64,000 bases of DNA from Eledone cirrhosa (Eukaryota). A program made the translations under genes and the position numbers. Below the pieces are notes generated by a model that had not been told where the DNA came from, ran no database searches, and was given only the letters and a program-made list of their open reading frames with translations. Below, one piece after another: positions 12,131 to 52,845 of the stretch (position 1 is its first letter; every line of letters begins with the position of its first letter). Location: positions 1-64,000 of the forward strand of contig CAXHJY010001125.1 in NCBI GenBank assembly GCA_964016885.1. Direction: 5' to 3'.

Positions 12131-12332
12131 ATGTAGGAGGTGAGTTTTATTGTAGTACAATAAAGCAATGCAGATATCGGATAAGTAGCACTCTACAGTT
12201 TGTAGGAGTGGAGTATATATAATATATAAGATCAAAAGATTGTTAAAAGAGTTCCCATGTATTTTATTATGCGCATTTTGAAATGCGCATAATAAAATAC
12301 ATGGAACTCTTTTAACCATCTTTTGATCTTAT
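12131..12332 (+). mobile_element. (TA)n-embedded element family B with ~53-bp-arm palindrome (12226-12332)
   Basis: Both ends match the reverse complement of 16231-16585; fold-back centred just before GAAA-TGCGC-ATA. Confidence 0.75.
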
Positions 12333-12460: not shown

Positions 12461-12461
<1 letters not shown>

Positions 12462-12650
12462 ACGAAGGAAATGTGGTAAGGAACCAGGTGGACCATAACG
12501 CACCAAAGTACTCAATATTTGAGGTAGTAGAGTGGGTAATAGGAACCAGTAAGACCCCGACAGCTGAGCTCAAGCCGTTTCGACGGCTAATTCGAGAATT
12601 AGCCGTCGAAACGGCTTGAGCTCAGCTGTCGGGGTCTTACTGGTTCCTAT
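12461..12650 (-). mobile_element. (TA)n-embedded element family A with fold-back palindrome (12539-12650)
   Basis: Unit aacgaaggaaatgtggtaagg...gccgtttcgacggctaattc followed by its inverted partial copy. Confidence 0.85.
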
Positions 12651-14826: not shown

Positions 14827-14896
14827 CACATATATATATATATATATATATAGGAAAGAGTCAGGCAAGATTCCACTGTTCTAATGTTGGTGGTTT

Positions 14897-15040
14897 AGTT
14901 CGGATCCAGCTGTCGAAACGGCTGGAGCTCAGCCGTCGGGGGTCTTGATTCTTTTCCTATTACCCACTCTACTCCCCTAAGTATTAAGTACTCTAGTGCA
15001 TTTTATGGTCCACCTGGTATCTTACCACACCCTCTTTGTT
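14897..15040 (+). mobile_element. Element family A (variant subfamily)
   Basis: gtcgaaacggctggagctcagccgtcgggggtc...ggtccacctggtatcttaccacac then (TA)n. Confidence 0.8.
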
Positions 15041-18901: not shown

Positions 18902-19603
18902 AACAGAACAACACCACCATTAACAAAACTAACAATACCACCATGAAAAAAGAACTATTAACAACAGAACTAACAACGCCGCCATTAACAGAACTAATAA
19001 CAACAACAACAACAACATTAACAGAACTAACAACAACACTAACATTACAAGAACTAACAACAACAACACCAACATTAACAAAACTAACAATACCACCATG
19101 AAAAAAGAACTATTAACAACAGAACTAGTAACACCACCATTAACAGAACTAACAACAACAACATTAACAGAACTAACAACAACAACACCAACATTAACAG
19201 AACTAACAACAACAACACCACCATTAACAGAACTAACAACAACAACAACAACAACATTAACATAACTAACAACAACAACAACAACATTAACAGAACTAAC
19301 AACAACACCAACATTAACAGAACTAACAACACCAACATTAACAGAACTAACAACACCAACATTAACAGAACTAACAACAACAACACCACCATTAACAGAA
19401 CTAACAACAACAACAACAACATTAACAGAACTAACAACAACAACACCAACATTAACAGAACTAACAACAACAACACCACCATTAACAGAACTAACAACAA
19501 CAACACCAACATTAACAGAACTAACAACAACAACACCAACATTAACAGAACTAACAACAACAACAACACCAACATTAACAGAACTAACAACAACAACACC
19601 AAC
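18902..19603. repeat. (AAC)n-derived minisatellite with constant attaacagaact core
   Basis: About 22 variable-length units. Confidence 0.9.
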
Positions 19604-20269
19604 AATAATTTTATAGAACCCTCAAAAATTAAAAAAATGCAGTAATAAAAAGCATCGAATGAAAATGAAGTTAAAGCAACGTTAGTAACGAAAAGCAACA
19701 CCGCCCTCATATATGTCTGAGATAAAAAAAAACTACAAAAAATACCAAAAAAAAACTGAGTATCTATCCAGCGTTCCGACCTTTTTTAAATTACACTCAA
19801 CTGCTTGTATTGCTAAAAGCCAACGAATAATTCTGAATCCTCCCAACATTCCAGAGAACGGTAGTAAACCATTAACATAAATGTCTGCATACAATTTCTC
19901 TGTAGCACGTAATCAGCTTACTTTCAGCCTATCCCAATTCGAGGCATTCTAGTAAATAAGACTACTTACTGAATTCAGTACTTGGCTGGTAATATGTGGA
20001 GATGTGGAGAAAACACCCATTGTAGGCGACTATTATATAGTATAAGATATATTATTTCATCCGTATGAGTTAAATTTTATGCCTAAACCCAACAGCAACG
20101 GATGTTATTTAAAGTTTTAAGTTGCAAACATGGAGAGAAGGGCGGGAGCAGAGAGCAGTGAAAGTTAATAAAAGTGTTTGTCTTCATAAGAGTATATTAC
20201 ACATGAGGCAAATATCAAAATAAAGCCGACAGTTGTGTGTTAAATATATTTCTGGTTAGAGTCAGCATT

Positions 20270-21178: not shown

Positions 21179-21302
21179 TATATATATATATATAGCATGC
21201 AGACCTTTACTCATGGGAGTACTCTGTACATGAGAAGATGTAGAGTTGGTATCGAGATATGTAAAAGGTGTAGTTTACACCCTTTAAAACGCTTGCTGAA
21301 CT

Positions 21303-21585
21303 AAAGAAGTGTGGTAAGGAGCCAAGTGGACCATAACGCACCAGAGTACTCGATACTTTGGGTAGTAGAGTGACTAATAGGAAAAGGTTCAGGACCCCGA
21401 CGGCAAAGCTCAAGCCGTTTCGACGGATATATATATTTATATATATATATATATATATATATAACGAAGGAAATGTGGTAAGGAACCAGGTGGACCATAA
21501 CGCACCAAAGTACTCGATACTTTGGGTAGTAGAGTGGGTAATAGGAAAATGTTCAGGACCCCGACGGCAGAGCTCAAGCCGTTTC

Positions 21586-21619
<34 letters not shown>

Positions 21620-21741
21620 ACGAAGGAAATGTGGTACGGAACCAGGTGGACCATAACGCACCAAAGTACTCGATACTTTGGGTAGTAGAGTGACTAATAG
21701 GAAAAGGTTCAGGACCCCGACGGCAGAGCTCAAGCCGTTTC

Positions 21742-21746
<5 letters not shown>
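21303..21746 (-). mobile_element. Three tandem family A copies separated by (TA)n
   Basis: Units 21303-21426, 21463-21590 and 21619-21746, each ending at gtttcgacgg. Confidence 0.9.
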
Positions 21747-21810
<64 letters not shown>

Positions 21811-26114: not shown

Positions 26115-26204
26115 GTTTAGAAGGTTCTTATTTAAATAAAAATCCTCCAACAATTTTATACAGGGTAAGTCATAAGTAAGCGAGAAGTCCAACATTTATT
26201 TATA

Positions 26205-26293
26205 CGGCTGAGCTCCGGCCGTTTCGACAGCTAGATCCAGTTCGGATCTACCTGTCGAAACGGCCGGAGCTCAGCCGCCGGGGTCATGACTCT

Positions 26294-26297
<4 letters not shown>
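26205..26297. mobile_element. Family A variant reduced to a fold-back palindrome
   Basis: cggctgagctccggccgtttcgacagctagatcc-agttc-ggatctacctgtcgaaacggccggagctcagccg. Confidence 0.8.
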
Positions 26298-28504: not shown

Positions 28505-28624
28505 GTTTACGGCCATATCTCGTTGAAGAAACCGGTTCTCGTCCGATCACCGAAGTTAAGCAACGTCGAGCCTAATTAGTACTTAGATGGGTGACCGCTT
28601 GGGAACCCTAGGTGCTGTAAGTAT
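28505..28624 (+). rRNA. 5S rRNA gene or recent pseudogene, solitary copy
   Basis: gtttacggccatatc...ccggttctcgtccgatcaccgaagttaagcaacgtcgagcc...tagtacttagatgggtgaccgcttgggaa..ggtgctgtaag; 120 nt; terminal helix pairs; T4 at 28629-32. Confidence 0.92.
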
Positions 28625-32200: not shown

Positions 32201-32374
32201 CCAGACACCACAGTTCTATATGTTGCTATATAACAGTAGCCTGGCAGCCACATTGATTTCCCTACAAAACCTTATCACGACAACTCTACAATAGAGAGAC
32301 AGGCGACTTTATTATCATTATTGTTATTATTATTAAACCATCTTCGTCATTATTATAATTATTCAATCATCATT

Positions 32375-32421
32375 ATCAGTAGTAGTAGTAGTAGTAATGG
32401 TGGTGGTGGTGGTGATGGTGT

Positions 32422-32453
<32 letters not shown>

Positions 32454-32585
32454 ATGGTGGTGGTGATGGTGATGGTGTTGGTGGTAGTAGTAGTAGTAGT
32501 GGTGGTGGTGTTGATGGTGTTGGTGGTAGTAGTAGTAGTAGTAATGGTGGTGGTGGTGTTGATGGTGTTGGTGGTAGTGGTGATG

Positions 32586-32624
<39 letters not shown>

Positions 32625-32955
32625 ATGGTGTTGGTGGTAGTGGTGATGGTGTTGGTGGTAGTAGTAGTAGTAGTAGTTGTTGTGGTGGTAGAGGTGGTAG
32701 TAGTAGTTGCAGTGGTGGTGGGTGTAGTGGTAGTAGTAGTAGTAGTAGTAGTAGTAGACGGCGGCGGCGGCAAGAAGAGCAGCAGCAATGACAGCAGCAG
32801 CAGCAATAACAGCAGCAGCAATAATAACAGCAGCAGCAGCAATAACAGCAGCAGCAGTAATAACAGCAGCAGCAGCAATAACAGCAGCAGCAATGACAGC
32901 AGCAGCAGCAATAACAGCAGAACCACCACCACCACCACCACCACCACCAGCAGCA
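32375..32955. repeat. Trinucleotide tract (AGT/GGT, then CAG/AAT, then ACC)
   Basis: Visible directly; accounts for the poly-S/G/V/A ORFs. Confidence 0.9.
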
Positions 32956-33691: not shown

Positions 33692-33696
<5 letters not shown>

Positions 33697-33891
33697 AACG
33701 AGTAGGACCCCGACGGCTGAGCTCAAGCCCTTTCGACGGCTAATTCTGGACTCATGTCTAGAATTAGCCGTCGAAACAGCTTGAGCTCAGCCGTCAGGGT
33801 CCTACTCGTTCCTATTACCCACTCTACTACCCTAAGTATTGAGTATTTTTGCGTTATGGTCTAACTGGTTCCTTACCACATTTCCTTCGTT
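33692..33891 (+). mobile_element. Family A with fold-back palindrome (33692-33814)
   Basis: Inverted arm joined at ctggactcatgtctag; (TA)n on both sides. Confidence 0.85.
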
Positions 33892-38877: not shown

Positions 38878-39035
38878 TCCAGTCCAGAATTAGCCGTCGA
38901 AACGGCTTGAGCTCAGCCGTCGGGGTCCTACTCGTTCCTATTACCCACTCTACTACCCTAAGTATTGAGTACTTTGGTGCGTTATGGTCCACCTGGTTCC
39001 TTACCACACTTCCTTCGTTATATATATATATATAT

Positions 39036-44470: not shown

Positions 44471-44867
44471 GAGATGATAGGGACTGGGGTCCCTATCATT
44501 AAATCACCCAAGACACCTCCAGCGAGATATACCTTGGAGGAGGCCAGCTAAACCTGCATAGGTGTGAGCTATCACACACACACACAGACACACACACATA
44601 GGTGAGAGCTGTCACACACACATATATGTGAGAGCTGTCACACACACACACACACACACACACAAGGTACGGGTCTTCACCCTGACATAGTAGCTTTCGA
44701 AGCAGTAATTCTTAACCTTAGAACAACGTATCAGTGATGACATACTGCAGATGACTGCATTGATTATATTGATTGCAGCTGCTGCAATGGGTCAGCCATC
44801 GTAAGTACATAATAAGTACATAGGAACCAACAGGAGAACCTCTAGATGTTGATCGATTTCCTAGAAA

Positions 44868-45955
44868 TAGTAGCCATAAGTCGCTCAAATCATACCCCAT
44901 AGTAGCCATAACTCGCTCAAATTACACCCAATAGTAGCCATAACTCGCTCAAATCATACCCCATAGTAGCCATAACTCGCTCAAATTACACCCAATAGTA
45001 GCCATAACTCGCTCAAATTACACCCAATAGTAGCCATAACTCGCTCAAATTACACCCAATAGTAGCCATAACTCGCTCAAATTACTCCTGATAGTAGCCA
45101 TAACTCGCTCAAATTACACCCAATAGTAGCCATAACTCGCTCAAATCATACCCCATAGTAGCCATAACTCGCTCAAATTACACCCAATAGTAGCCATAAC
45201 TCGCTCAAATTACACCCAATAGTAGCCATAACTCGCTCAAATTACACCCAATAGTAGCCATAACTTGCTCAAATTACTCCTGATAGTAGCCATAACTCGC
45301 TCAAATTACACCCAATAGTAGCCATAACTCGCTCAAATTACACCCAATAGTAGCCATAACTTGCTCAAATTACTCCTGATAGTAGCCATAACTCGCTCAA
45401 ATTACACCCAATAGTAGCCATAACTCGCTCAAATTACTCCTGATAGTAGCCATAACTCGCTCAAATTACACCCAATAGTAGCCATAACTTGCTCAAATTA
45501 CTCCTGATAGTAGCCATAACTCGCTCAAATTACACCCAATAGTAGCCATAACTCGCTCAAATTACACCCCATAGTAGCCATAACTCGCTCAAATTACACC
45601 CAATAGTAGCCATAACTCGCTCAAATTACACCCTAGAGCAGCCATAACTCGCTCAAATTACACCCAATAGTAGCCATAACACGCTCAGATTACACCATAG
45701 AGCAGCCATAACTCGCTCAAATTACACCCAATAGTAGCCATAACACGCTCAGATCACACCCTAGAGCAGCCATAACTCGCCCAAATTACACCCCATAGTA
45801 GCCATAACTCGCTCAAATTACATCCTAGAGCAGCCATAACTTGCTCAAATTACTCCTGATAGTAGCCATAACTCGCTCAAATTACACCCAATAGTAGCCA
45901 TAACACGCTCAGATCACACCCTAGAGCAGCCATAACTCGCTCAAATTACACCCTA
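44868..45955. repeat. 32-33-bp minisatellite amplified inside a dispersed repeat
   Basis: About 34 units tagtagccataactcgctcaaattacacccaa with variants; flanks continue the ctagaaatag...ccctacc repeat. Confidence 0.95.
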
Positions 45956-46207
45956 CCATTTTTAAAGTAAGGTAAGAACATATTGCGTAATGTAATCCAA
46001 GATAAAATATGTCTAAAAGAGAACGAAATGGTCACAGATATTTAATCAAAGTTGAACTGCGATTAAGTTACAACTTATATGTAATGGAGTTGTCTCGATG
46101 GATTAGCTGTAGTTATGGCAGTCTCGGTTTGATGCTTTTCAACCAGAATGGATGACTTTCTATATAGGAAGGACTGACATGGTGGTTCTCCATAGTGGTT
46201 CACCAAG

Positions 46208-46828: not shown

Positions 46829-46967
46829 AACGAAGGAAATGTGGTAAGGAACCAGGTGGACCATAACGCACCAAAGTACTCAATACTTAGGGTAGTAGAG
46901 TGGGTAATAGGAACGAGTAGGACCCCGACGGCTGAGCTCAAGCCGTTTCGACGGCTAATTCTGGACT
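46829..46967 (-). mobile_element. Element family A
   Basis: Near-identical reverse complement of 38881-39019. Confidence 0.9.
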
Positions 46968-47023
46968 AAATTTAACCCGGGATAAACATCTCTCTCTCTC
47001 TCTCTCTCTATAATATATATATA

Positions 47024-51676: not shown

Positions 51677-51797
51677 CCTACCCTCACACCATTACTATGT
51701 GTCCTTATCTCCACATCCCATCAACTTTTCTTTAATGTAATAAAGTCAACCACCCTCATCTTTCATTCGTTCTAATTTAATTCAAAAGAGTACAGCA

Positions 51798-52845
51798 ATG
51801 GTGGTGGTGGTGGTGAAGGTTGTGGTGAGGTGTTGGTGTTGGTGGTTGTGGTGGTGGGGAGATAGGAGAGAAGTTGTGATGGTGGTGGTGGTGATGGTAG
51901 TGGTGTTGGTGGTGTTGGTGGTGATGGTGTTGGTGGTGGGTGATGGTGGTGGTGTTGGTGGTGGTGTTGGTGGTGGTGTTGTTGTTGGTGGTGGTTGTGG
52001 TGGTGGGGAGATAGGAGAGAAGTTGTGATGGTAGTGGTGTTGGTGGTGTTGTTGGTGGTGGGGAGATAGGAGAGAAGTTGTGATGGTGGTGGTGGTGATG
52101 GAGTTGGTGATGATGGTAGTGGTGTTGGTGGTGTTGGTGGTGATGGTGATGGTGATGGGTGATGGTGGTGGTGTTGGTGGTGGTGTTGGTGGTGGTGGTT
52201 GTGGTGGTGGGGAAATAGGAGAGAAGTGGTGGTGGTGGTGTTGGTGGTGGTGGTGATGGTGGTGGGTGATGGTGGTGGTGTTGGTGATGGTGTTGGTGGT
52301 GATGTTGTTGGTGGTGGTGGTGTTGGTGGTGGGTGATGGTGATGGTGGTGATGGTGGTGATGGTGTTGGTGGTGTTGGTGGTGATGGTGTTGGTGGTGAT
52401 GGTGTTGGTGGTGTTGGTGGTGATGGTGTTGGTGGTGGTGGTGTTGATGGTGGCGAAGGTGGGGTGGGGGGTAGGAAGAAAAGAAGAGATTCGGTTAAGT
52501 TGAACGAGAAGAAGCAGACGAGTGAATGAATGTGAGAGAAAGAAGAGAAGAAGAAATAGAATGAGTTAAAAGTAAAGTAAATTGATGAGAAACCCCTCCA
52601 CCACCACCACAACTACCACCGTCACCACCACCGTCACCACCACCACCATCACCACCACCATCATCACCTCCACCACCATCACCACTACCACGATCACTAT
52701 CAACACCACTACTAAAACCACCACCACCACCACCACTACTAAAACCACCACCACCATCACTATCAACACCACACCACCACCACCATCACCACCAACCACC
52801 ACTAACACCCCCACCACTACCACCACGACCACCGCCACCGCCACC
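51798..52845. repeat. (GGT)n-rich tract and opposing (ACC)n-rich tract
   Basis: 51798-52470 is GGT/GAT/GTT-rich; 52597-52845 is ACC/ATC-rich. Confidence 0.9.

Follow-up and report, generated by a model that had tools for sequence, protein, structure and literature searches.

Head-to-head stubs of a Penelope-like element in Eledone cirrhosa end mostly at one edge inside a hammerhead loop, probably the capped start of its mRNA

In the 64,000-nt stretch of Eledone cirrhosa DNA analysed here (the window), copies of a repeat designated family A break off, or fold back on themselves, at the core of a hammerhead ribozyme, which raises the question of what sets this end and how the mirror arms arise. 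Self-BLAST of the window bore out the nine copies of the original prediction, a foldback being counted as one, at 12.5, 14.9, 21.3-21.7 (three in tandem), 26.2, 33.7, 38.9 and 46.9 kb. As predicted, the hammerhead 3' half (GAAAC, helix III and GTC, or a mutated form) was present in all nine, and CUGAUGA was not: neither CTGANGA nor YTGANAA lay within 90 nt upstream in any of the 7 arms caught by a motif scan of the window, and the 26.2 and 33.7 kb arms, read by eye, likewise had no hammerhead 5' half. The 5' ends were measured at about 4-21 nt upstream of GAAAC, in agreement with the predicted 20 nt or so. No hammerhead was found among the 150 Rfam matches listed of 321 for the window, where the family A copies hold half a motif, and a repeat finder was swamped by microsatellites. 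Minisatellite arrays (32-nt unit, degenerate triplet arrays) were observed at 44738-46000, 19060-19800, 32340-32790 and 51770-52440, and one 5S rRNA gene, or a copy of it, at 28505-28623 on the plus strand, with 105 bits.

Element coordinates take as +1 the A in TT(T/C)AGT, which precedes GAAAC by 18 nt. The three predicted foldbacks were real and their apices differed. Their arms were unequal, one meeting (TA)n at about +59 (short end) and the other 78 nt further (tail end). The first, 12539-12650, is a 54-bp hairpin on folding (z=-22.6), but this predicted extent was too small, since the 78-nt tail on one arm is absent from the other and places the start of the insertion at about 12461. The tailed arm (12461-12593, minus strand) runs from +7 to about +139 and comprises the hammerhead 3' half, the short-end site, the tail and a (TA)n end; a single filler base (12594) separates it from the short-ended arm of subfamily C2 (12595-12648, plus strand, +6 to about +59), with GAAAC at 12608 and the GTC cleavage triplet at 12628-12630. 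In the second pair, an arm from +6 that has lost its 3' part beyond helix III (26204-26238, minus strand) meets, at a blunt junction, a short-ended arm (26239-26297, plus strand) beginning exactly at A+1 (AGTT variant). In the third, the short-ended arm (33693-33753, minus strand) reaches A+1 (33752) and carries one untemplated G (33753, minus-strand reading) where the template has T, and the tailed arm (33756-33891, plus strand) starts from +2, past a 2-nt filler. The 14.9 kb copy added a fourth, lopsided head-to-head pair, in which an antisense stub of a short-ended arm (14851-14865, minus strand, by eye) is followed by about 28 nt of unassigned sequence and a tailed arm of a diverged subfamily (14894-15040, plus strand) beginning TTTAGTT, with A+1 at 14897. 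The other copies were three tandem tailed arms with (TA)n between them, each beginning about 7 nt before GAAAC (21299-21749, minus strand), and two solo tailed arms, one beginning at A+1 (38881-39019, plus strand) and one reaching about -3 (46829-46970, minus strand). A near-perfect foldback at 12231-12328, beside a (TA)n tract and by eye without sequence kinship to family A, is possibly a stub pair of another family.

In the 3.0 Gb assembly the 23-nt family A core had 27,936 exact matches and the reversed control 0, therefore family A is not a chance pattern; the subfamily of the 12.5 kb copy, followed with a 35-mer of its own, had 9,963 genome matches. The sequence continued upstream in a minority of copies, one such extension having 686 exact matches. 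The parent was a 3,541-nt unit consisting of pLTR, hammerhead, tail, 5' leader, RT-endonuclease ORF and a 1.2-kb 3' region. RT and GIY-YIG share a single ORF, read as a 595-aa open frame with YRDD and YIG motifs in locus L132, and with its start in L141. The tail is the start of the 5' leader, its continuation being read in L141, L142 and L144, which also have partial tandem and inverted pLTR layouts with a one-sided tail; the ATG is at +232, and the putative RT start sites fall in the 5' leader. In nearly all arms inspected the 3' ends enter (TA)n. The Penelope-like origin and the inverted, truncated pLTRs that had been suggested from the window were thus supported by the parent with its RT and GIY-YIG and by the one-sided tail in 51 of 52 pairs. 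In L141 a small predicted hairpin in the leader (about +150 to +190, just past the tail end) might, from its modelled fold, mark an RT start site. Beside the L141 and L144 insertions, a different GIY-YIG ORF with a zinc-finger-like linker was seen on the opposite strand, likely belonging to another Penelope-like family.

Judged by its sequence, family A is the end of an EN+ Penelope-like element. The ORF contains DKT, the CxCx5C linker, CxxC and CxH around conserved E and N, and a C-terminal EN; the RWK position reads RWR at residue 37, a conservative change. Absence of a CCHH motif from the endonuclease is a further trait of the Hydra clade, and the C and H positions of the element's protein were mapped. 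From these motifs and the likeness by eye of the N-terminal and RT parts to printed Hydra proteins, the parent probably belongs to the Hydra clade; the Neptune clade, also considered, was dropped, as the motifs fit the Hydra description of PMC8557442. Pfam and PDB searches with the ORF gave no useful match, and although 2,028 of 7,988 scored candidates were homologous at E<=1e-20, the 120 of them listed bore no informative name. Members of the Hydra clade such as Hydra-1_Obim share with the element the single ORF of RT and C-terminal GIY-YIG, DKT, the CxCx5C linker and CxxC/CxH, as well as (TA)n targets, a pLTR hammerhead and tandem and inverted arrangements (PMC8557442). The element differs in RWR versus RWK, a unit of 3.5 kb versus <3 kb, a tail of 78 nt versus 30-40, and a U3-A8 hammerhead with a loop II of about 40 nt versus the canonical motif of Hydra-1_Obim (PMC8557442); because of this unlike hammerhead it was taken as a different family from Hydra-1_Obim. 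In itself the element is an ordinary new family within a known clade. Non-LTR retrozymes, described as tandem non-coding units each with a complete hammerhead (bioRxiv 10.64898/2026.07.22.740005), were rejected as its identity, the short copies being without the hammerhead 5' half, also in the 21.3-21.7 kb tandem.

The longer copies that had been predicted, with the hammerhead 5' half and an RT ORF, were found, but the missing half has a UUGANAA (U3-A8) core and not the expected CUGAUGA or CTGANGA, so that a CTGANGA search would miss the ribozyme. ACCCC is followed by (U/C)UGA(G/U)AA and then by the helix II strand, and this 5' half had 1,849 exact matches. By eye, the first 100 long copies listed had U3 in 64 and C3 in 36, and G in 80 and U in 20 at position 7 (C in L179). 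With GAAA and GUC present beside UUGA(G/U)AA, the core residues are those of a type I hammerhead. U3-A8 is a known natural swap for C3-G8, found also in hammerheads of Schistosoma PLEs, and this natural covariation is common to the element (PMC3088659, PMC4209133); unlike those hammerheads, the element has a stable 6-bp helix III, a long loop II holding the likely start, and C3-A8 in about a third of long copies. Sequence suggests that the C3-A8 copies are likely impaired in self-cleavage; this core mismatch was seen in 36 of the first 100 long copies listed, yet that subfamily spread widely. The three-way junction was the minimum-energy fold in L294 and L291 and not in L302, the z-scores of the hammerhead fold over three copies (-0.4, -1.8, -0.2) were none of them significant, and among 10 close copies 91.6% of cells were paired, with two-sided change in 0 of 25 pairs. 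Position +1 sits in the loop of about 40 nt of predicted helix II, and the predicted hammerhead cut site is at +41. In the flanks of L018 and L022, close to family A insertions, further hairpins, long and perfect, were noted by eye, as was another motif resembling a hammerhead.

The 5' edge was mapped with subfamily-matched natural references in two sets taken irrespective of what lies upstream, the first 100 matches to the core on contig C1 together with the first 30 of subfamily C2; every junction sample came from the first 80 Mb of one contig. The breakpoints clustered strongly: 110 of the 130 arms ended in a 25-nt zone from +19 to -6, none ended from -7 to -37, and 20 were long. A uniform spread, which would have spoken against the predicted breakage at the hammerhead core, was not found. 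Within the zone the ends spread from -4 to +7 with a tail toward +19, the pattern expected if a fixed end had been trimmed. The edge is not at the helix base, and corresponds to the initiator-like TT(T/C)AGT inside loop II, beyond the 3' strand of helix II; the initiator fit (consensus TCAGTY/YYANWYY, PMC1779564) held in every variant and subfamily seen. By eye, most of 30 tail-anchored loci reached the same zone and a few began near +42. Short stubs outnumbered long copies by about 5:1. Many arms of subfamily A end in T-runs or reach -4/-5, and 33 of 42 T-preceded short arms belong to it; to account for these ends, slippage or a second start at -4 has to be assumed. Hammerhead cleavage was rejected as the source of the edge, the cut site being +41 and not +1, as was splicing at the nearby AG, which is kept in the copies; a cluster of reaches near 385 nt reflected divergence from the subfamily A reference and not true breakpoints.

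Many arms carry an extra base before the edge. A search whose pattern left out T at -1 found a non-T base before A+1 in 5,707 arms, with G in 45, C in 47 and A in 8 of the first 100 listed (by eye). In long copies the -1 base was T in 92, C in 8 and G in 0 of the first 100 of 4,380 listed (by eye), and those of subfamily C2 likewise never had G there; a templated G in some subfamily was rejected on these grounds. Non-A at +1 was found in only 33 long copies genome-wide. For the count of G, 97 distinct arms with such a non-T base were taken, of which 32 (subfamily B or unassigned) were set aside, so that only subfamilies whose long copies have T at -1 were counted; a base was removed where the partner arm (30), a G of the partner's own (4), the copying of a piece (3) or a microsatellite (2) accounted for it. 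The 26 untemplated bases left before A+1 were 21 G, 5 C and 0 A. Of the 39 arms starting at +2, 11 were set aside; here 10 bases before G+2 were left without explanation, 2 G, 7 C and 1 T, and the enrichment of G at +1 over +2 (21/26 versus 2/10) gave Fisher p=0.003, against a small control of 10 cases. The signal came mostly from subfamily C2, 22 of the 26 cases being C/C2. Full-length L1 insertions typically carry an extra 5' G from the cap (PMC11702581), and an untemplated G before A+1 is what would be expected of a copied mRNA cap; +1 is thus likely the capped start of the element mRNA, start site and cap both being read from DNA junctions alone. Among the arms with C before G+2, 7 of 19 read G-C-GTCC (L013, L228, L272, L274, L277, L279, L280), as if a cap G had been followed by a miscopied first base.

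The pairs obeyed further rules. In unselected loci, 51 of 52 pairs joined a short-ended arm (about +59) to a tailed one (about +139), and both arms were of the same subfamily in 49 of 52 (two pairs joined B with C and one was unassigned); since L085 and L098 join different subfamilies, one RNA molecule is not the rule in every case. Toward the 5' side the short arm reached further in 15 of the 51 pairs, the two were equal in 14, and the tailed arm reached further in 22; in L297 about 1.3 kb of the short-ended arm is absent from its partner. The junctions (n=52) showed microhomology in 20, filler in 21 and no addition or overlap (blunt) in 11. Apices were highly varied and arms unequal; the apices that recur correspond to the simplest ways of joining ends at +1, +2 and +7. 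Among 52 long arms, an inverted partner was visible for 27 and not for 19, the latter in part because of divergence from the reference; the other 6 extended beyond the locus. The 27 partners, some pairs being counted from both arms, were long in 22 cases, shorter than +25 in 5 and ended near +1 in 0; exceptions to the long-with-long rule are L134 and L139, in which the partner of a long arm does end near +1 (read from translations). This geometry, the shared subfamilies and the long-long pairing indicated that the arms were made separately, usually on the same class of template, and self-priming of one cDNA is disfavoured because the short arm reaches further 5' in those 15 pairs. Each mirror pair is therefore likely two separately made cDNAs joined head to head, not one folded-back copy.

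It is probable that family A consists of Penelope-like stubs ending mostly at a capped mRNA start inside loop II, and that the pairs are two joined cDNAs. From the observed parent, edge, extra G and pairing rules we infer the following course. An internal pLTR promoter would start transcription at +1, and the mRNA's 5' end would then carry the 3' half of the ribozyme only and would be spared self-cleavage at that place. Once the element protein had cut (TA)n, both DNA ends would serve as primers, each using one of two internal sites on the RNA that lie a little upstream of the ORF. With the 5'-most pLTR of the mRNA as template, the cDNAs would run off the cap once about 60 and 140 nt had been copied; their ends would copy the cap as C or gain A residues and be trimmed by a few bases, and the two cDNAs would be united by end joining or template jumping. 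A downstream pLTR in read-through RNA, used as template, would give two long arms with the full ribozyme. The ratio of stubs to long copies could be so high because the mRNA's own 5' pLTR would always be available beside the ORF start.

The same edge might also be made by cleavage or processing of a longer transcript, the extra G arising from untemplated C added by the RT, with the two cDNAs kept. The RT evidently adds untemplated bases, as A-runs up to 17 or more were found at apices, the ends spread over several bases, and addition of C at any RNA end would yield the same G. However, the hammerhead would cut at +41 and not +1, and by eye the 30 tail-anchored loci showed no pile-up at the ribozyme cut site (+42); the site is initiator-like in all subfamilies seen, and the added base is usually a single G that is enriched at +1 relative to +2. 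Processing was therefore considered unlikely. A stall of the RT at helix II, or at a small loop hairpin such as that folded over the site in L294, followed by self-priming of the second strand by the cDNA and joining to the target at the short-end TAT microhomology, was in essence the mechanism first suggested for these copies, and self-priming has been put forward for PLE palindromes (PMC3846280). Clustering of breakpoints near helix II is indeed observed, and the sharing of a subfamily by most pairs would follow; snap-back of a tailed cDNA needs a short arm that starts downstream, and therefore fits the 22 of 51 pairs in which the tailed arm reaches further. Against it, the edge is beyond the 3' strand of helix II, in the loop, at an initiator-like site with an untemplated G, and no apex retains the intact loop II expected from snap-back through helix II. 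Moreover, the short arm can hold bases absent from the tailed arm, exceeding 1 kb in L297, and both arms can bear an extra G of their own: among 34 pairs reaching +1 on both sides, G was on both arms in 5 and on one in 8. A chance stop would also often pair long with short arms, whereas long arms paired with long ones. This mechanism was judged quite improbable.

The short hairpin form could instead be a non-autonomous element of its own, MITE-like or hairpin-ended and amplified by a DNA route, as the high copy number, the fold-back shape and the recurrence of some apices might suggest. The variety of the apices and the inequality of the arms do not agree with fixed TIRs and a common interior, the short forms follow the long parent subfamily by subfamily, and the sequence runs on into the RT-endonuclease ORF. 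The related prediction of a hairpin end that moves by another route was unsupported on the same point, the sequence being continuous with that ORF on both sides, and such an origin is very improbable. Inverted duplications can arise in long-read assemblies, and the palindromes could accordingly be assembly or long-read chimeras; but the arms differ in 3' end and substitutions, the flanks differ on the two sides, and opposite-strand joints occur in this stretch also in contigs from public runs, possibly of the same sample. Chimeras were thus hardly credible as an explanation.

Several parts of the preferred reading, a capped start and two joined cDNAs, have parallels in known systems. Inverted truncated pLTRs with a one-sided tail have been published (PMC8557442); a fixed 5' edge or an extra G is not described for the Hydra clade in the sections of PMC8557442 covered here. 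For Poseidon_Ac (PAc) of Anolis, studied in vitro, the RT has two internal start sites, one on either side of the tail, cutting and extension affect both DNA strands, targets are AT-rich and a dimer is predicted, as would be the case here; PAc is of another clade, and its start sites lie inside the ORF while those of the element fall in the 5' leader (PMC11167929). The portions of PMC11167929 consulted are silent on 5' junctions, on the pairing of start sites in one insertion and on a cap signature. An internal promoter with Inr and DPE is known from D. virilis Penelope, and the element would resemble it in having an internal pLTR promoter with an initiator (PMC2377424). The PLE palindromes of PMC3846280 are likewise head-to-head inverted pLTRs with a one-sided tail; antisense-template self-priming is inferred there, whereas the junctions of the element speak for two cDNAs made on a sense and likely capped template. 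L1 twin priming is alike in the extra 5' cap G and in reverse transcription primed by the second DNA end, but inverts without duplicating the 3' part and uses variable internal priming sites (PMC11702581); in the element the two sites are fixed and both cDNAs copy the same segment. Searches of an open-access library of the literature showed neither a cap G nor a fixed 5' edge nor the short-plus-tail rule to have been reported for PLEs.

The origin of the inverted repeats, the RNA strand copied and the role of the hammerhead in PLEs have been named as open questions (PMC8557442, PMC3846280 and PMC11167929, in the parts consulted). At about even chances, the junctions, tens of thousands in number, record the Penelope cycle in vivo, with a dimeric RT, two fixed sites on capped sense RNA, mostly run-off ("strong-stop"-like) copies, a promoter within the ribozyme, and a complete hammerhead only in read-through RNA. 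For annotation, such palindromes should be regarded as retroelement stubs and not MITEs, and CUGANGA descriptors miss the ribozyme. If the reading is true, the extra G would fix the template as capped sense RNA, the short-plus-tail rule would tie the two start sites known in vitro to the two DNA ends of one insertion, and a promoter within the ribozyme would explain how the 5' end of the mRNA escapes self-cleavage. The self-priming, antisense-template model for inverted pLTRs would then be replaced, and the role of the hammerhead in PLEs would be limited to read-through transcripts.
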